From the NCBI RefSeq assembly GCF_002854065.1, contig NZ_CP024147.1: a DNA stretch of 64,000 bases; one strand, written 5' to 3'. A program made the position numbers and the translations under genes. Positions 41,163 through 50,483 of the stretch are shown in pieces. The notes beneath the pieces are model-generated. The model saw nothing but the letters and a program-made list of their open reading frames with translations, had not been told where the DNA came from and searched no databases. This stretch comes from Escherichia coli. Its GTDB lineage: Bacteria; Pseudomonadota; Gammaproteobacteria; Enterobacterales; Enterobacteriaceae. The stretch's first letter is position 1. Each line of letters opens with the position of its first letter.

Positions 41163-41435
41163 ATGAAGACATCTGATAATGAAAGTATAAAATATGAAAT
41201 TACTGGCCAGGCGGTGCTCCAGATACTGCGCATGAAGATAAATTTTTCGGTGCAGACTCTTATTAAGCAATTACTCGTAATGAAATCGGCTGAGGAAAAT
41301 GCTTTCCGACGAGATTTAATTGACAGCATAATTCGTGATTTTAGCAACAGTGATACAGGAGGGCCAAACCGAAGAACAGCGATAGCTGACAATAAAAGTA
41401 TGTTCAATGGTAAGAAAATAAACAGAATACATTAA
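41163..41435 (+). CDS. ymgA: small protein YmgA (connector/biofilm-related)
   Basis: 90-aa ORF, first gene after the IS2. Confidence 0.82.
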   Translation: MKTSDNESIKYEITGQAVLQILRMKINFSVQTLIKQLLVMKSAEENAFRRDLIDSIIRDFSNSDTGGPNRRTAIADNKSMFNGKKINRIH

Positions 41436-41463
41436 AATTTCATAAGTAAGATGAGAGGTTACC

Positions 41464-41730
41464 ATGCTTGAAGATACTACAATTCATAATGCAATAACTG
41501 ATAAAGCGTTATCAAGTTACTTTCGCAGTTCGGGTAATTTGTTAGAAGAAGAGTCAGCAGTGTTAGGGCAGGCTGTGACTAATTTAATGCTTTCAGGCGA
41601 TAATGTTAATAATAAAAATATTATCTTAAGTCTGATACACTCCCTGGAAACAACAAGTGATATTCTCAAAGCTGACGTGATCAGAAAAACACTGGAAATC
41701 GTGTTGCGATACACAGCGGATGACATGTAA
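41464..41730 (+). CDS. ariR: AriR (YmgB), regulator of acid resistance/biofilm
   Basis: 88-aa ORF with GAGAGG RBS. Confidence 0.85.
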
Positions 41731-41842
41731 CTTTTAATTATTAAGTATAAGTTTATAGAAAACTCATTCATCTTATTTTTGTCTGTCGCTTTAGACTATA
41801 CACAGCATAATTTTATTGGGTTAATATTTCTACGAGGCTGAC

Positions 41843-42091
41843 ATGAATAATTCAATCCCAGAGAGATTTATTTTTCAATGTGCTTTGTTTAAAAATCTCG
41901 AGAGGGAGGTATTCATGACGCATGGGTATGTTGATAGTCATATTATTGATCAGGCTTTACGCTTGCGTTTAAAAGATGAAACCAGTGTGATTCTTTCTGA
42001 TCTCTATCTGCAAATCTTGCAGTACATTGAAATGCATAAGACTACACTAACGGATATCATTATTAATGACAGGGAATCCGTGCTCTCTTAG
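41843..42091 (+). CDS. ymgC: small protein YmgC
   Basis: 82-aa ORF, TAG stop. Confidence 0.78.
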   Translation: MNNSIPERFIFQCALFKNLEREVFMTHGYVDSHIIDQALRLRLKDETSVILSDLYLQILQYIEMHKTTLTDIIINDRESVLS

Positions 42092-42426
42092 AACTTGAGT
42101 AAGGTTATAGAATAAACATCAGCTGTATCATCATGCTGGTGCAAAGTGAGCATTTCAGGCGTTATGCTTTCTTAATATATCCGCAATATCAGGGGGCAAA
42201 CAGGAATGGAGAGCGCTCGTTTTCCATTCTTGACGCCTGATATCCCACCTAATTTGTTTAATTCTGCCTACATTGTGCTCAATAATTAATAGGTTAGATG
42301 AAGATGGAGAAAATTTTATCTTCGGCGTGGATATTTCTTATGCTCTCTACCATGCTCTCTGTAGACGCCAGCGCGAGCGAATGAACGTCATTTTCATGTA
42401 TTAAACCCTTTGTTCGGGACAAGCGA

Positions 42427-43950
42427 ATGCGCAATACACTCATACCCATCCTCGTTGCGATATGCTTGTTTATAACCGGTGTCGCTATTTTGAACATCCA
42501 GCTCTGGTATTCCGCAAAAGCAGAGTACCTGGCGGGAGCAAGATATGCCGCCAACAATATCAATCATATACTTGAAGAAGCGTCACAGGCGACTCAAACA
42601 GCGGTTAACATTGCCGGGAAGGAATGCGACCTCGAGGAGCAATATCAGCTTGGCACTGAAGCAGCTCTGAAACCTCACCTGCGCACAATCATCATTCTCA
42701 AACAGGGTACGGTCTGGTGTACATCCTTACCGGGGAATCGGGTCCTGCTGTCTCGTATTCCTGTTTTCCCGGACAGTAATTTACTGTTGGCTCCGGCAAT
42801 CGACACCGTTAATCGATTACCTATCCTGCTCTATCAGAGCCAATTTGCAGATACGCGCATTTTGGTTACGATAAGTGATCAGCATATTCGCGGGGCGCTT
42901 AATGTACCCTTGAAAGGGGTAAGGTATGTATTACGCGTGGCGGATGACATTATTGGACCTACGGGTGATGTGATAACGCTTAATGGACATTATCCCTATA
43001 CCGAGAAGGTTCACTCCACAAAATATCATTTCACTATTATCTTTAACTCGCCGCCACTCTTTAGCTTCTACAGACTTATCGATAAAGGCTTTGGGATTTT
43101 GATCTTTATTCTGTTAATCGCCTGCGCCGCTGCCTTCCTGCTAGATAGGTATTTCAATAAAAGCGCAACGCCTGAAGAGATCCTGCGGCGGGCTATAAAT
43201 AATGGGGAGATCGTCCCTTTTTACCAACCAGTGGTGAATGGTCGGGAAGGGACATTGCGGGGAGTTGAGGTGTTAGCCCGCTGGAAACAACCTCACGGTG
43301 GATATATTTCACCCGCGGCATTTATTCCACTTGCTGAAAAATCCGGATTAATCGTTCCGCTTACGCAAAGCCTGATGAATCAGGTTGCCAGACAGATGAA
43401 CGCTATCGCGAGTAAATTGCCGGAAGGTTTTCATATTGGAATTAATTTTAGCGCCTCGCATATTATTTCGCCGACGTTTGTCGACGAGTGCTTAAATTAC
43501 CGTGACAGTTTTACCCGCCGCGATTTAAACCTCGTTCTGGAAGTTACCGAGCGTGAGCCATTAAATGTTGATGAAAGTCTGGTTCAGCGGTTGAACATTC
43601 TGCATGAAAATGGTTTTGTCATCGCGCTGGATGATTTCGGTACTGGCTACTCAGGGCTTTCTTTTCTGCATGACCTGCATATTGATTATATCAAAATTGA
43701 TCACAGTTTCGTTGGCCGCGTAAACGCAGACCCAGAATCAACTCGGATTCTGGATTGTGTATTGGATCTGGCGCGTAAACTTTCGATCAGTATCGTCGCT
43801 GAAGGTGTCGAAACCAAAGAACAACTTGACTATCTGAACCAAAATAATATCACATTTCAGCAGGGTTATTATTTCTATAAACCTGTTACATACATCGACC
43901 TGGTCAAAATTATCCTTTCTAAACCGAAGGTGAAGGTTGTGGTTGAGTGA
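42427..43950 (+). CDS. pdeG: c-di-GMP phosphodiesterase-family protein PdeG (YcgG), CSS-motif plus EAL domain
   Basis: 507-aa product with N-terminal TM, periplasmic domain, second TM and C-terminal EAL domain. Confidence 0.87.
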   Translation: MRNTLIPILVAICLFITGVAILNIQLWYSAKAEYLAGARYAANNINHILEEASQATQTAVNIAGKECDLEEQYQLGTEAALKPHLRTIIILKQGTVWCTSLPGNRVLLSRIPVFPDSNLLLAPAIDTVNRLPILLYQSQFADTRILVTISDQHIRGALNVPLKGVRYVLRVADDIIGPTGDVITLNGHYPYTEKVHSTKYHFTIIFNSPPLFSFYRLIDKGFGILIFILLIACAAAFLLDRYFNKSATPEEILRRAINNGEIVPFYQPVVNGREGTLRGVEVLARWKQPHGGYISPAAFIPLAEKSGLIVPLTQSLMNQVARQMNAIASKLPEGFHIGINFSASHIISPTFVDECLNYRDSFTRRDLNLVLEVTEREPLNVDESLVQRLNILHENGFVIALDDFGTGYSGLSFLHDLHIDYIKIDHSFVGRVNADPESTRILDCVLDLARKLSISIVAEGVETKEQLDYLNQNNITFQQGYYFYKPVTYIDLVKIILSKPKVKVVVE

Positions 43951-44081
43951 AAATCGATCACTAAGGCCATGATGCGGTGTAATTATAGACAGCTAATTAG
44001 CTCGTTGCCTCTTGTTACTATTGTTCATTATTTTGTTTGCTATAATTGTTTGAAAGTTTTGACAGGATTGCCATTAGTAGC

Positions 44082-44300
44082 ATGAACAATAGTAATAATC
44101 TGGATTATTTCACTCTCTATATCATCTTTTCCATTGCATTTATGCTGATCACTCTCCTGGTCATCCTTATTGCAAAACCCAGTACCGGGCTGGGAGAAGT
44201 GCTTGTGACGATAAATTTGCTTAATGCCCTTGTTTGGCTGGCGATCAATCTGGTTAATCGATTAAGGGAAAGACTCGTCAGCCACAGGGATCAGCAATAA
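44082..44300 (+). CDS. ymgF: small inner membrane protein YmgF
   Basis: 72-aa product MNNSNNLDYFTLYIIFSIAFMLITLLVILIA... with two hydrophobic helices. Confidence 0.75.
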   Translation: MNNSNNLDYFTLYIIFSIAFMLITLLVILIAKPSTGLGEVLVTINLLNALVWLAINLVNRLRERLVSHRDQQ

Positions 44301-44699
44301 TCTTTCAGTTTCTCACTGTCAGCATGCGGCTGAATGGGGTGCTGACAGTGAACGCCTGGATCATTGAAGGAAAGGAATTATTGCGCAAATAGTTGTCAAC
44401 CCTGGTGTTATCACAGTTGTTTTTATATATCATTGAAATAATTTCTATGGCAACTATCAATGATTGTGATGTCGAAGAGTTATTTGTTAAACAAAATCGT
44501 CACCTCAAAGTGATCAATGTCATGAAAATAAGGTGAAAAATAATAATGCCGACTTATTTATCATTTATATATTGTTGCTGTTTATCTATTTAAATTTCTT
44601 GTGCTTTTGTTTTTGTCTTTACCCTCCGTTTTGGTAATCTGAACTCATAGGTTATTTGACCAGGAATGTTTGTTAATCCAATGAATGGATGGTTAATCT

Positions 44700-47363
44700 A
44701 TGAAACTGAAAAAACTCCCCGGGTTTAGTTTAGGACTTATTGCTCTGGCGGTGGGTAATGCATATGCAACACAATTGTTGGATGATTATAGTATAATTTC
44801 CTATATAACCGATGAAGAATCGCCGATTCAAATCAAAGATAATACTTTGAAAAGTAATGAAGAATATCTAACCACTGAAGACGAAAGCCATGCTGTGAAA
44901 GTGGATGACGGTGTAACTGGATATATAAATAATGCCAGTGTGATGACTAGTGGTGATGGATCTTATGGTATTTCTGTTGATAGTCAAAACAAAGTATTAT
45001 ATATAAGCGATAGCGATATTAAGACCTCTGGAAGCGTATCTAACAAAGAAAATAACCAAGATGTTAATGGAGGGATAACAGCCAGCGCAGTAGTCAGTGA
45101 ATTTGGTGGCACCATCGTTATGAATGGTGATAATTTAGTCGAGACGGGGGGGGCATATTCAGCGGGACTTTTAAGTCAGGTTAATGATTCTGGAAATGTG
45201 GAAAATAACACTCGTCTTGAAACCACAGATAAAACGATCATTGTTACCTCTGGGGAAAATGCAGTAGGTGTTCTTGCATGTTCAAGACCTGGAGAGTCTC
45301 GAACATGTGTCGATGCTGTAGATGATGAAGTTAGTGATTCTAACAGTTACGAAGTTATTAGCCGTGCTGATTTAAAAATGAATGGTGGTTCCATAACAAC
45401 TAATGGCATTAATAGCTATGGTGCTTATGCTAATGGGAAAAAAGCATATATTAATTTAGATTATGTGGCACTTGAAACTGTGGCTGATGGAAGTTATGCA
45501 GTTGCTATTCGACAAGGTAACATTGATATAAAAAATAGTTCTATTACAACAACAGGCACTAAAGCCCCCATTGCAAAAATATACAATGGTGGAGAGTTAT
45601 TTTTTTCCAATGTCACCGCGGTATCAGTAAAAGATAAAGGAATATCAATTGATGCATCAAATATCGATTCTCATGCCAAAATAGCACTATCAAGTGTTGA
45701 ACTTTCAAGTGCTTTGGATAGTATTGATGTTAACAAAACTACAACGAATTTAAGCATCCTTAATCGAAGTATTATCACGCCTGGTAATAATATTCTGGTT
45801 AATAATACTGGGGGTGACTTAAACATAATTTCGTCCAACTCTACTCTAAATGGAGCGACTAAACTCGTTAGCGGCACAACCACGCTGAAGCTTTCAGAAA
45901 ACACAATCTGGAATATGAAAGATGACTCCGTTGTTACCCATCTGACTAATTCAGACAGTATTATCAATCTTTCGTATGATGATGGTCAAACATTTACCCA
46001 GGGAAAAACGTTAACCGTAAAAGGTAATTATGTCGGTAATAATGGTCAGCTTAATATCCGCACTGTATTAGGTGATGATAAATCAGCTACGGATAGACTT
46101 ATTGTGGAGGGTAATACTTCGGGTTCAACTACCGTCTATGTGAAAAATGCTGGAGGAAGCGGCGCGGCCACGCTAAATGGGATCGAACTCATAACTGTGA
46201 ATGGCGATGAATCTCCAGCAGATGCCTTCAGACAAGGTGATGCAAGGATTGCAGCTGGAGCTTTCGAATATCAACTAAAACAACAAGGCAAAAACTGGTA
46301 TTTGACAAGTTATCAGTCAGTGAATGAGGAGGATAACAGCTCAGAGGGAAATTCAGAATCAACAGAAACGCCCACCCCCGTCCTGCGCCCCGAAGCTGGA
46401 AGTTACGTCGCCAACCTGGCAGCCGCTAACACTCTTTTTGTTATGCGTCTGAATGACCGTGCAGGTGAAACGCGCTACATCGATCCTGTAACTGAACAGG
46501 AGCGTTCAAGCCGACTTTGGCTACGTCAAATTGGCGGGCATAATGCCTGGCGTGACAGCAACGGACAGTTGAGAACGACCTCGCATCGCTACGTCTCGCA
46601 GTTAGGGGCCGATCTGTTAACCGGTGGTTTTACCGACAGTGACAGTTGGCGTTTGGGAGTGATGGCTGGTTATGCCCGCGACTACAACTCAACTCATTCC
46701 AGCGTGTCGGATTATCGTTCGAAAGGGAGTGTCAGAGGCTATAGCGCAGGGCTGTATGCCACCTGGTTTGCCGATGACATCAGTAAAAAAGGCGCATACA
46801 TTGACGCCTGGGCGCAATATAGCTGGTTTAAAAACTCGGTGAAAGGGGATGAATTAGCCTATGAATCCTATAGCGCGAAAGGCGCAACCGTCTCGCTGGA
46901 AGCGGGTTACGGCTTTGCCCTGAATAAATCCTTTGGTCTGGAAGCGGCGAAATATACGTGGATCTTCCAGCCACAGGCACAGGCTATCTGGATGGGCGTC
47001 GATCATAATGCGCACACCGAAGCCAATGGCTCACGTATTGAGAATGACGCAAATAACAACATCCAGACCCGACTTGGTTTCCGCACTTTTATTCGTACTC
47101 AGGAGAAAAACAGCGGTCCGCACGGTGACGACTTTGAACCTTTTGTTGAAATGAACTGGATCCATAACAGTAAAGATTTTGCTGTCTCAATGAACGGCGT
47201 GAAAGTCGAACAAGACGGGGCGCGTAATTTGGGGGAAATTAAACTTGGCGTAAATGGCAATCTGAATCCGGCGGCCAGCGTCTGGGGTAATGTGGGCGTG
47301 CAGCTGGGTGATAATGGCTACAATGACACCGCAGTGATGGTGGGCCTGAAATATAAGTTCTGA
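44700..47363 (+). CDS. ycgH: autotransporter (type Va) adhesin-like protein YcgH, full-length ORF
   Basis: 887-aa ORF: signal peptide MKLKKLPGFSLGLIALAVGNAYA, Ser/Thr/Gly/Asn-rich passenger, C-terminal beta-barrel ending ...VGLKYKF. Confidence 0.85.
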   Translation: MKLKKLPGFSLGLIALAVGNAYATQLLDDYSIISYITDEESPIQIKDNTLKSNEEYLTTEDESHAVKVDDGVTGYINNASVMTSGDGSYGISVDSQNKVLYISDSDIKTSGSVSNKENNQDVNGGITASAVVSEFGGTIVMNGDNLVETGGAYSAGLLSQVNDSGNVENNTRLETTDKTIIVTSGENAVGVLACSRPGESRTCVDAVDDEVSDSNSYEVISRADLKMNGGSITTNGINSYGAYANGKKAYINLDYVALETVADGSYAVAIRQGNIDIKNSSITTTGTKAPIAKIYNGGELFFSNVTAVSVKDKGISIDASNIDSHAKIALSSVELSSALDSIDVNKTTTNLSILNRSIITPGNNILVNNTGGDLNIISSNSTLNGATKLVSGTTTLKLSENTIWNMKDDSVVTHLTNSDSIINLSYDDGQTFTQGKTLTVKGNYVGNNGQLNIRTVLGDDKSATDRLIVEGNTSGSTTVYVKNAGGSGAATLNGIELITVNGDESPADAFRQGDARIAAGAFEYQLKQQGKNWYLTSYQSVNEEDNSSEGNSESTETPTPVLRPEAGSYVANLAAANTLFVMRLNDRAGETRYIDPVTEQERSSRLWLRQIGGHNAWRDSNGQLRTTSHRYVSQLGADLLTGGFTDSDSWRLGVMAGYARDYNSTHSSVSDYRSKGSVRGYSAGLYATWFADDISKKGAYIDAWAQYSWFKNSVKGDELAYESYSAKGATVSLEAGYGFALNKSFGLEAAKYTWIFQPQAQAIWMGVDHNAHTEANGSRIENDANNNIQTRLGFRTFIRTQEKNSGPHGDDFEPFVEMNWIHNSKDFAVSMNGVKVEQDGARNLGEIKLGVNGNLNPAASVWGNVGVQLGDNGYNDTAVMVGLKYKF

Positions 47364-47380
47364 TCCCCGTTAGCTAAAAT

Positions 47381-47405
47381 ACCGCGTCGAATTCATCGAC
47401 GCGGT
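47381..47405. terminator. bidirectional hairpin terminator between ycgH and ymgD
   Basis: accgcgtcga-attca-tcgacgcggt perfect 10-bp stem. Confidence 0.6.
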
Positions 47406-47418
47406 AACATATGAAATA

Positions 47419-47748
47419 TTATTTTTTGCCGATAGCACGCATGGTGTCATCAATTGCCGTGATCAACAGCATTTGCGGGTCTTTAGCGCAAACCTGATTC
47501 AGTTTTTCTACCACTTTGGCGCTCAGTTCCGGAGATTGCTCAATTTTTAAATCACGGCTGGCAACGCTGGCATTACCCATTACCGCAACAATTTCTGCAA
47601 CCTGTGCGCTGTCAGTTTTTGCCATTTCGTTGGCTTCTGCGCAAGTAATATAGGTTTCTGACGGCAAACCGTTTTTAATATTGTAGTCCTGCGCCCAGGT
47701 CATTGGTGCGAAAACAAACAGGCCCGCCAGTAAAGCAAATTTTTTCAT
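47419..47748 (-). CDS. ymgD: periplasmic protein YmgD
   Basis: about 109-aa secreted ORF (signal peptide ...PMTWA). Confidence 0.8.
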   Translation of the reverse strand: MKKFALLAGLFVFAPMTWAQDYNIKNGLPSETYITCAEANEMAKTDSAQVAEIVAVMGNASVASRDLKIEQSPELSAKVVEKLNQVCAKDPQMLLITAIDDTMRAIGKK

Positions 47749-47757
47749 CATCATTCC

Positions 47758-48102
47758 TTATTTCATTTTACCCAGAATTGCACCACCCGTACCGCCAATC
47801 ACGGCACCTTTAATCGCCCCTTCGAGGCCATTGCCGGTCAGAACGCCAGTGACAGCACCAACGGCGGCACCCACTTTTGCACCTTTACGTGCATTTTTAC
47901 CGTCGCGGCCTTTTTCTGTTACTGCACCAACACCAGCGCCAACAGCTGCACCTTTCAGTACGCCATTAACACCATTGCCAGTAAGTAATCCAACGCCTGC
48001 GCCTAGCAATGCACCTTTCGTGGTGCGGTTCATATCCGCCATCGCTGGCGTGGAGCAGAACAATGCTGAGATAAGCCCGAAGGCAAGTATTTTTTTCTTC
48101 AA
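47758..48102 (-). CDS. ymgG: glycine-zipper protein YmgG
   Basis: 114-aa Gly/Ala/Val-rich secreted ORF immediately downstream of ymgD. Confidence 0.8.
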
Positions 48103-48578
48103 CTTAGATGTCCGGTATTAAGTAAGTTGCACACACAATAATTTCGTCTTCAATTAAGATCTGCTTAACTAAAGAACGCTCGCTATTATTCAGATAATTC
48201 AAAATGAGCGTGGCTGTGATGATAGGAATTATGTTTTTTACGTGAATGAGAATAATCTTAAATGAGGAATAACTCATTGATTGACAATATTTTTATTCAA
48301 GAAGTGTCATTGACTGTTAACGCAATGTTGTAATGGTAAGATAATCTGATTTATCAATATTATTGTGTGATTTTTATGTGAGCAGAAGATATTCATCAGC
48401 AACGATTACATTAGTCATTTTATTTTGCCGACGGCCTCATTGTCGAAAGATAAGCGTACGACAGTATTATCTGAAAAGAGTGATTTTTTATCCAACCACA
48501 CTTCAGCGCACTGCGTTTAAAAAATGCCTCTTTCTTATGCGGGATATCATCATTTCATCATGATGTCTTTGGTGAGCG

Positions 48579-49022
48579 GTGAACACAATACACCTGCGCT
48601 GTCTCTTCAGGATGAATCCCCTGGTCTGGTGCCTGCGGGCTGATGTTGCAGCCGAGCTAAGGTCACTTAGACGCTACTATCATTTATCCAATGGCATGGA
48701 ATCGAAATCAGTCGATACCCGCAGTATATATCGTGAACTGGGTGCAACGCTGAGTTACAACATGCGTCTGGGGAACTGTATGGAAGTTGAGCCGTGGCTG
48801 AAGGCGGCTGTGCGCAAAGAATTTGTCGATGATAACCGGGTGAAAGTGAATAATGACGGTAATTTCGTCAATGATTTGTCGGGCAGACGTGGAATATACC
48901 AGGCAGGTATTAAAGCCTCATTCAGCAGTACGTTAAGCGGGCATCTCGGGGTGGGGTATAGCAACGGTGCCGATGTGGAATCCCCGTGGAACGCGGTGGC
49001 TGGTGTGAACTGGTCATTCTGA
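48579..49022 (+). pseudogene. ycgI: autotransporter beta-domain C-terminal remnant (ycgI-like)
   Basis: 147-codon frame lacking ATG and signal sequence, ending in typical autotransporter barrel terminus ...AVAGVNWSF. Confidence 0.6.
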
Positions 49023-49342
49023 CCATCAACGATTAAACTGCACTTCGGCACAGTTTTCGTTTACAGGATGTTAAAAGAGAAAATTCTGGGGTAAAAAAAG
49101 CCCGCCAGTTACGGCGGGAAACCTCATCCTATGGGAGAACAATGAATAATGAATAATGAAATTGCGGGGTTATCATCTCCCAGTATATCCATACCAACAA
49201 TAAGGTTATTTACTCAACCAGGCATAAACATTTTTTTTTGTGCGTGGGAACATCCTTAAGGTGTAAAGGGGGAGGTGGAAATAGCAATGAGGAGTATCAG
49301 CAAGAATACTCGCCGCTTTACCACAACGTGGATGAGAGGGAT

Positions 49343-49376
49343 GAAAAACTCAAGGCAGAGATAACTCTGCCTTGAA
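49343..49376 (-). terminator. rho-independent terminator downstream of minE
   Basis: tcaaggcagag-ataa-ctctgccttga 11-bp stem with adjacent T-run on minus strand. Confidence 0.6.
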
Positions 49377-49400
49377 GATAAATGCGCTTTTACAGCGGGA

Positions 49401-49667
49401 TTATTTCAGCTCTTCTGCTTCCGGTAAGGTCACGTTCAGCTCAAGAATAGAAATATCGCCATCTTTTTGCTCAAGCTGTACGGTTACCATCTCAGGATCA
49501 ATTTGTACGTATTTACAAATGACCTCAAGAATATCTTTACGCAACTGCGGCAGATAATGCGGTTCTGCATCGCTGCGACGGCGTTCAGCAACAATAATCT
49601 GCAGCCGTTCTTTTGCAATGTTGGCTGTGTTTTTCTTCCGCGAGAGAAAGAAATCGAGTAATGCCAT
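49401..49667 (-). CDS. minE: cell division topological specificity factor MinE
   Basis: 88-aa product [31 protein letters not shown]... Confidence 0.95.
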
Positions 49668-49670
49668 AAC

Positions 49671-50483
49671 TTATCCTCCGAACAAGCGTTTGAGGAAGCC
49701 TTTCTTCTCTTCTTCAATGAAGCGGAAAGGACGTTCTTCTCCCAACAGACGTTCTACGGTATCTGCGTAGGCTTTACCCGCATCGGCGTTAATGTCGAGA
49801 ATGACCGGTTCACCCTGGTTAGAGGCGCGCAATACTGATTGATCCTCTGGGATCACGCCGACGAGTTTGATGCGCAGGATCTCCAGCACATCTTCCATGC
49901 TCAGCATGTCACCTCTGCTTACGCGGCCTGGGTTATAGCGCGTTAACAGCAGGTGCTCTTTAATAGGCTCTTCGCCATTTTCTGCGCGGCGTGATTTTGA
50001 CGCCAGAATGCCTAAAATACGGTCAGAGTCGCGTACTGAGGAGACTTCCGGGTTGGTGGTAATAATGGCTTCGTCTGCAAAATAGAGTGCCATTAACGCA
50101 CCGGTTTCAATCCCTGCCGGGGAGTCACAAACGATAAATTCAAAATCCATCGCTTTCAGATCATCAAGAACTTTAGCGACCCCTTCACGGGTGAGGGCAT
50201 CTTTATCGCGTGTTTGCGATGCCGGCAGAATATAGAGATTTTCAGTACGCTTATCTTTAATTAACGCCTGATTTAGCGTTGCATCGCCCTGAATGACGTT
50301 GACGAAATCGTAAACGACCCGGCGTTCGCAACCCATAATCAGGTCGAGATTACGCAGGCCGATATCAAAATCTATCACGACAGTTTTCTTTCCCTTCTGG
50401 GCCAAACCAGTGGCGATGGCCGCGCTGGAGGTTGTCTTACCAACACCCCCTTTGCCCGAAGTAACAACAATAATGCGTGCCAT
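49671..50483 (-). CDS. minD: septum site-determining ATPase MinD
   Basis: 270-aa product MARIIVVTSGKGGVGKTTSSA... (deviant Walker A). Confidence 0.97.
   Translation of the reverse strand: MARIIVVTSGKGGVGKTTSSAAIATGLAQKGKKTVVIDFDIGLRNLDLIMGCERRVVYDFVNVIQGDATLNQALIKDKRTENLYILPASQTRDKDALTREGVAKVLDDLKAMDFEFIVCDSPAGIETGALMALYFADEAIITTNPEVSSVRDSDRILGILASKSRRAENGEEPIKEHLLLTRYNPGRVSRGDMLSMEDVLEILRIKLVGVIPEDQSVLRASNQGEPVILDINADAGKAYADTVERLLGEERPFRFIEEEKKGFLKRLFGG

Follow-up and report, generated by a model that had tools for sequence, protein, structure and literature searches.

Does the Escherichia coli strain from which this DNA was taken carry a working copy of ycgH, an autotransporter gene that is a disrupted pseudogene in the laboratory strain K-12? 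The question was raised by a stretch of 64,000 nucleotides of contig NZ_CP024147.1 (assembly GCF_002854065.1), called the window below. A first reading of its letters had found ycgH as one uninterrupted frame and, further downstream, the remnant of a second autotransporter gene (ycgI), and had suggested a surface adhesin, missing from K-12, as a possible product of the strain. Our analysis makes it highly probable that 44700-47363 is a functional-looking ycgH allele coding for a classical (type Va) autotransporter of the AIDA-I type with a surface-displayed passenger, that the K-12 copy is dead and that ycgI is a non-functional stump.

The reading frame was re-examined in the six-frame list of open reading frames. 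A single ATG-initiated frame of 887 codons covers 44700 to 47363 on the plus strand without an internal stop, and neither a frameshift nor a stop came to light, so the frame is unbroken as the original prediction had it. Its start and end are those that the NCBI Prokaryotic Genome Annotation Pipeline (PGAP) calls for intact ycgH elsewhere, for example in RM14516 and MLI114 (both 2664 bp), and no gap appeared when it was aligned with intact orthologues. The product is 100% identical to the RefSeq protein WP_158302263.1, 'autotransporter YcgH', which has been seen on 8 contigs. The gene order pdeG-ymgF-ycgH-ymgD-ymgG-ymgI-ymgJ-remnant-minE is the same in annotated strains; by its exact sequence match and by its position between ymgF and ymgD, the gene belongs to the group that RefSeq names 'autotransporter YcgH'. 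No YcgH-specific model was present in the NCBIfam copy that was searched, and the PGAP name could not be traced to a testable hidden Markov model. The allele of the window is already known, annotated and fairly common.

The disruption in K-12 was located by alignment. Substitutions separate the two alleles at 66 of 2664 nt, an identity of about 97.5%, and two lesions, both absent from the window, were placed at 46233 and 47288. The first turns codon 512 into a stop. The second is the loss of a single base 75 nt ahead of the stop codon, by which the last 24 codons are shifted and the terminal strand with its phenylalanine is lost. An in-frame deletion of 15 bp in K-12 was considered harmless because strain 214-4 has the same deletion and is annotated as intact at 882 aa; between the alleles of K-12 and 214-4 there are only three further substitutions, all nonsynonymous. 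PGAP lists ycgH of the K-12 derivative XL1-Blue as a pseudogene ('frameshifted; internal stop') and flags the clinical strain FDAARGOS_1248 alike. The K-12 copy therefore reads as dead, because of the nonsense codon 512 and the frameshift that removes the last beta-strand, and the description of ycgH as a disrupted K-12 pseudogene proved correct.

One of these lesions is a 1-bp indel after four consecutive G (GGGGTAAT), and errors of sequencing can mimic differences of this class. Faulty assembly or sequencing might then have produced the intact frame, or the lesions might be errors of the K-12 record. The population data refute this explanation and leave it a negligible probability. The 8 contigs with the exact 887-aa protein are independent, and a protein search returned more than 120 distinct YcgH sequences of 882-890 aa (nearly all 887) with at least 97% identity, most of them named YcgH; one sequence variant was seen on 585 contigs. 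On the K-12 side, the stop is found exactly in 1494 complete genomes, and XL1-Blue and FDAARGOS_1248 carry the same PGAP flag independently.

The encoded protein was then analysed for the parts of an autotransporter. The N-terminus, MKLKKLPGFSLGLIALAVGNAYA followed by TQ, was judged by inspection of the sequence and its hydropathy. All three parts of a Sec signal peptide are there, namely a basic n-region (MKLKK), a hydrophobic core with a hydropathy peak of 2.5 at residues 9-18 (10-residue Kyte-Doolittle mean) and an A-x-A site, in agreement with the signal peptide proposed before. Among the NCBIfam profiles, TIGR01414 matched residues 434-887. In Pfam, the Pertactin family (PF03212) matched residues 431-536 with an E value of 5.2e-09 and the Autotransporter beta-domain (PF03797) residues 606-865 with 5.7e-41. 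Residues 24-409 matched no family of Pfam or NCBIfam. The C-terminus reads VMVGLKYKF, and an aromatic terminal residue is typical of outer-membrane beta-barrels; the beta-barrel with its aromatic terminal motif was thus recovered as described.

The structure of YcgH was modelled with AlphaFold2, using an alignment of YcgH with 39 diverse relatives from an exhaustive HMMER search with the passenger (2565 hits, E <= 0.001). The model had a mean predicted local distance difference test score (pLDDT) of 84.2 and a predicted template modelling score (pTM) of 0.75. Short beta-strands were present throughout residues 55-536, mostly with a pLDDT above 85, followed by a helix at 564-578 and a barrel at 605-886; residues 1-40 had a pLDDT below 50. 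AlphaFold2 and Foldseek together give a beta passenger, a linker helix and a barrel. The first reading's description of the passenger as repetitive did not hold for the sequence: Tandem Repeats Finder found no repeats in 44600-49100, and a self-BLASTP of the 887-aa protein gave no internal match. The repetition is structural only and lies in the beta-helix. With a signal peptide, a beta-helical passenger with an autochaperone, a linker helix with a barrel and an aromatic C-terminus, YcgH is predicted to be a textbook classical monomeric (type Va) autotransporter of the AIDA-I structural type.

By homology, the secretion pathway of YcgH would run as follows. The 23-residue signal peptide would direct the precursor through Sec. 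The C-terminal 280 residues or so would be recognised via the terminal aromatic signal (YKF) and inserted into the outer membrane as a barrel by the beta-barrel assembly machinery (BAM), with the linker helix (residues 564-578) lying in the barrel pore. The passenger of about 540 residues would be threaded to the cell surface and fold from the autochaperone (residues 410-526) into a right-handed beta-helix. Its most likely role there would be that of an adhesin at the surface or of a biofilm factor, which is a guess; that the strain expresses YcgH at all is likewise a guess, and the adhesin suggested by the first reading is compatible with the data.

The frequency of the intact gene was estimated among complete E. 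coli genomes. The region 44000-50000 matched 5424 of 5426 genomes, K-12 derivatives at 97.5%. The count was made with allele-specific 61-bp probes centred on codon 512 and with a sample of five genomes. The probed segment was present in 2238 of the 5426 genomes, with the exact CAA form in 693 and the exact TAA form in 1494. Five CAA genomes were taken arbitrarily: three were annotated as intact, one had an IS2 insertion and a frameshift, and one a frameshift at nt 831. Extrapolated from these three of five to the 693 genomes without the stop, about 400 genomes probably have an intact gene. As a rough estimate from a small sample rather than a census, ycgH is intact in 7-10% of complete genomes. 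Among the best 40 DNA matches, 30 had an in-frame ycgH of 2664 or 2673 bp. The rarity of the intact gene that the original prediction implied was not borne out; YcgH is a RefSeq-named protein found in hundreds of complete genomes.

The closest relative in this region is strain CUWW06. Its ycgH is split by IS1B (L002, 2252-5642), yet it is otherwise 100% identical to the window over 44000-50000, alone among the matches listed. The window therefore stands for this very close relative without the insertion. Positions 1-25000 of the window are 100% identical to both CUWW06 and strain 100416, while for ycgH no strain besides CUWW06 exceeded 99.2% identity among the matches listed. The comparison of the two regions suggests recombination mosaicism among close relatives.

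The selective constraint on ycgH was calculated by the Nei-Gojobori method as the ratio of nonsynonymous to synonymous substitution rates (dN/dS) between the window allele and other alleles. Overall, the ratio was about 0.25-0.34. It reached 0.4-0.55 in the passenger and only 0.05-0.07 in the linker and barrel, which make up the translocator. Such a profile points to purifying selection on an autotransporter that is functional and varies in its surface domain.

The region upstream of ycgH is AT-rich and presumably contains the promoter. Its 400 bp show only about 20 differences from K-12, which cluster near 44430-44460, and no indels. The passenger DNA (36-39% GC in the first two thirds) and the upstream region together range from 33 to 39% GC, compared with about 50% in the neighbouring genes; low values of this kind are typical of H-NS-bound DNA. 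For K-12, genomic SELEX (systematic evolution of ligands by exponential enrichment) gives an RpoD site together with H-NS in the ymgF-ycgH(I) interval (PMC3946193), and chromatin immunoprecipitation sequencing (ChIP-seq) of sigma-S lists a peak at ycgH (PMC4447067). The hexamers TTGACA-19-TATAAG given for the RpoD site (PMC3946193) were found neither in the window nor in K-12 within the region searched. A scan with the sigma-70 consensus gave 19 sites compared with 14 +/- 4 in shuffled sequence, which is no excess, and no promoter is assigned to ycgH. Given this AT-rich promoter region and the H-NS association reported for it in K-12, the window gene may be silent in the laboratory. A second AT-rich stretch (GC 0.35-0.36) was noticed about 3 kb upstream of ycgH, at 41200-42200, in front of the EAL-domain gene pdeG (42427-43950).

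Several observations weigh against a displayed and useful YcgH. The gene has been inactivated repeatedly elsewhere, by IS1 in CUWW06, by IS903B in JX21CE8 and its relatives, by a frameshift at nt 447 in GPEC1446, by the IS2 insertion and the frameshift at nt 831 in the sampled genomes, and by the K-12 stop in 1494 genomes. This suggests a gene that many settings either do not require or select against. The passenger reaches the NCBIfam equivalog cut-off of no characterised adhesin family. Upstream of the gene there is no strong sigma-70 consensus, the best site being a 9/12 match at 44517-44544, and the Shine-Dalgarno sequence reads as weak. In the searchable literature no functional study of YcgH was found; some of the papers that mention ycgH have it as a K-12 pseudogene, as a line in a promoter table or as a pseudogene integration site (for example PMC9509612), and the others are, by title and abstract, on unrelated topics.

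Part of this evidence fits an intact but cryptic ycgH, silenced by H-NS, idle in normal growth and caught before the inactivation that most lineages have already acquired. The low GC content of the passenger DNA and its upstream region, the H-NS listing at the ymgF>ycgH site and the many independent knock-outs all agree with this explanation, to which we give somewhat less than an even chance. The dN/dS values argue against it since they indicate purifying selection among the alleles, most of all in the translocator, and the sigma-S peak in K-12 implies that transcription may be conditional rather than absent. A cryptic gene is also compatible with the functional-looking allele that we favour, as silencing in the laboratory and a function in the host can coexist.

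The second autotransporter was examined in the open reading frame 48579-49022 (147 aa, GTG start), which begins 1216 bp downstream of ycgH. It had been described as a whole as the start-less barrel terminus of an autotransporter. This was correct for 48678-49022 and incorrect for 48579-48677, which is flanking DNA: residues 1-33 of the frame matched no family of NCBIfam or Pfam, and the homology to autotransporters starts at residue 34. The remnant proper matches positions 319-432 of the 432 in TIGR01414 (E = 2.7e-22) and positions 152-254 of the 255 in PF03797, roughly the final 100 of the barrel profile, and it has no start codon, signal peptide or passenger. The same 345 bp are annotated by PGAP in related strains as 'incomplete; missing N-terminus'.

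The origin of the remnant became clear from strain MLI114, which has an intact ycgH and, at the position of ycgI, a full-length autotransporter of 1128 aa (WP_151298368.1; L004, 5208-8594) that PGAP names YpjA/EhaD. The remnant is identical to residues 1015-1128 of this protein in 109 of 114 positions. In BLASTN the window runs colinear with MLI114 as far as 48678, skips 3071 bp (L004, 5179-8249) and resumes at 48679. The deletion begins 30 bp upstream of the start codon and has at most 1 nt of microhomology at its junction. It took away the ribosome-binding region, the start codon, the signal peptide, the passenger and most of the barrel. As only 345 of 3387 bp were kept, no functional ycgI product is possible; the remnant is homologous to a barrel C-terminus and is not a complete YpjA/EhaD gene. 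An origin of the remnant by duplication of ycgH was rejected, as the best local alignment comprised 11 of 34 residues and fell into the passenger of YcgH, not its barrel, and between full-length YcgH and the barrel region of the MLI114 protein the identity is only about 27%.

An 81-bp probe for the deletion junction was covered in 4595 of the 5426 genomes (about 85%), and a 121-bp probe for the undeleted left junction in 408. Most genomes of the species thus carry the stump, and a minority the full-length gene. In K-12 the stump has a further 1-bp deletion, at window position 48787. The full-length MLI114 protein matches TIGR04415 (AIDA-type repeats) and the Ag43 model. Its gene shares 92-94% DNA identity with the genuine ypjA, of which it is a paralogue at a different locus, and the PGAP name shared by the two could mislead surveys of gene content.

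The coordinates of all features are compiled in the table.

Table. Features of the ycgH-ycgI region of the window, with the changes in K-12
Feature	Position	Strand	Basis
ycgH, intact coding sequence, 887 codons and stop	44700..47363	+	open reading frame list, NCBIfam and Pfam profile matches
Sec-type signal peptide, aa 1-23 (MKLKKLPGFSLGLIALAVGNAYA), predicted cleavage after AYA	44700..44768	+	sequence inspection and hydropathy profile
Passenger domain, aa 24 to ~560, predicted beta-helix	44769..46379	+	AlphaFold2 strands, Foldseek matches
Autochaperone domain type 1, aa 410-526	45927..46277	+	Pfam PF18883 (AC_1), E 2.5e-29; IcsA autochaperone 3ML3, E 1.8e-19 by sequence
Linker alpha-helix, aa 564-578, predicted in barrel pore	46389..46433	+	DSSP on AlphaFold2 model; region superposes on 4MEE
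Outer-membrane beta-barrel (translocator), aa 605-887, ends in GLKYKF	46512..47360	+	PF03797, 4mee_A, Foldseek
15 bp (NNQDV) in window, in-frame deletion in K-12	45051..45065	+	alignment
Codon 512, CAA (Gln) in window, TAA (stop) in K-12	46233..46235	+	alignment
T in window, deleted in K-12 (GGGGTAAT to GGGGAAT)	47288	+	alignment
AT-rich ymgF-ycgH intergenic region, presumed ycgH promoter region	44301..44699	+	GC 0.33-0.36
G+C-rich palindromic stem-loop between convergent ycgH and ymgD	47380..47406	.	terminator-like, 11 pairs, scored on minus strand
5' part of the 147-aa frame, non-autotransporter flank upstream of the deletion junction	48579..48677	+	aligns with MLI114 L004 4501-5178
ycgI remnant, last 114 codons and stop of a YpjA/EhaD-like autotransporter	48678..49022	+	TIGR01414, PF03797, MLI114 alignment

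The stem-loop behind ycgH is predicted to have a terminator-like role. Between it and the ycgI remnant, two short open reading frames at 48363-48563 (ymgJ, plus strand) and 48104-48277 (ymgI, minus strand) match genes annotated in related strains. PGAP lists there a further hypothetical protein of 39 aa that overlaps ymgJ, and annotates ymgJ as frameshifted in MLI114 and CM2.

The chromosomal slot of ycgH is occupied by an alternative allele in some strains. An 'ECIAI39_1904 family autotransporter adhesin' is found there, for example in CM2. In BLAST, this allele shares with ycgH nt 1-65, coding for the signal peptide (98.5%), and nt 1327-2664 (89%), whereas nt 66-1326, most of the passenger, could not be aligned with ycgH DNA and represent a different passenger cassette. 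The CM2 copy (L006, 1201-3849, with window 44765-46025 as the differing middle) is frameshifted. A third type (P0136, 880 aa) shares about 65% identity with YcgH along its whole length. From these alignments, it looks as if recombination had exchanged the surface domain between ends that are conserved.

A broader explanation would make ymgF-minE a small hot spot of surface-antigen turnover with two autotransporter slots, subject to episodic selection against and for display. YcgH, the ECIAI39_1904 protein and the third type of about 65% identity would then be passenger cassettes exchanged between conserved signal-peptide and translocator ends, with phage or immune pressure on the one side and, on the other, selection for a sigma-S-controlled adhesin in the minority that keeps ycgH intact. 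We consider this speculative and rather unlikely.

What the locus offers is a modest example of the decay of adhesin genes in E. coli, in which both autotransporter genes between ymgF and minE were repeatedly and independently inactivated. The window strain is among the minority with an undamaged ycgH, and the meaning of this is slight beyond a correct annotation. YcgH is among the last uncharacterised autotransporters of the K-12 lineage, and tests of it could conveniently start from a naturally intact allele or from a K-12 gene in which two defined positions are repaired.

Finally, YcgH was compared with known autotransporters, which bears on the nature of its passenger. Beta-helix passengers also occur in autotransporters that are not adhesins, such as the serum-resistance factor BrkA. 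With residues 24-409 unassigned in Pfam and NCBIfam, the passenger might be an enzyme, a toxin or a serum-resistance factor instead of an adhesin, although in BrkA only the barrel domain matched YcgH. This alternative appears improbable: YcgH has no protease, lipase or esterase domain, the SPATE (serine protease autotransporters of Enterobacteriaceae) and GDSL autotransporters EspP, Hbp and EstA match it by their barrels only, and the closest profile relatives are the adhesin families AIDA-I, MisL, YfaL/EhaC and ShdA. The NCBIfam equivalog models of these families stayed far below their cut-offs, with 284 of 1200 bits for AIDA-I (NF033176), 428 of 1297 for MisL (NF011841), 198 of 1459 for YfaL/EhaC (NF007285) and 192 of 2249 for ShdA (NF011847), and the matches span only the C-terminal half of YcgH. 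By these scores YcgH is a relative of the four families and a member of none. The 19-residue repeats of the self-associating autotransporters AIDA-I, TibA and Ag43 were likewise not detected in YcgH, which gave no TIGR04415 match and no tandem or internal repeats.

The passenger of YcgH is matched in Foldseek by pertactin (1DAB, E = 3.8e-10), by the IcsA passenger (5KE1) and by Hap (3SYJ), and in the sequence search by IcsA/VirG fragments including 3ML3 (E = 1e-18 to 1e-19). With pertactin and IcsA/VirG it shares the right-handed beta-helix with a C-terminal autochaperone at an identity of only 13-24%; the integrin binding of pertactin and the actin nucleation of IcsA are known functions of those proteins and are not carried over to YcgH. 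AIDA-I differs in its passenger, that of YcgH being much shorter and without the AIDA-type strand-loop-strand repeats (no TIGR04415 match). The likeness to AIDA-I lies in the transport unit 4MEE. In the sequence search of the Protein Data Bank, residues 434-887, the part with autochaperone, linker and barrel, align with 4mee_A at an E value of 7.7e-77, and the modelled barrel superposes on this structure with a Foldseek TM-score of 0.94 (target-normalised), a root mean square deviation of 2.9 A and 35% identity.

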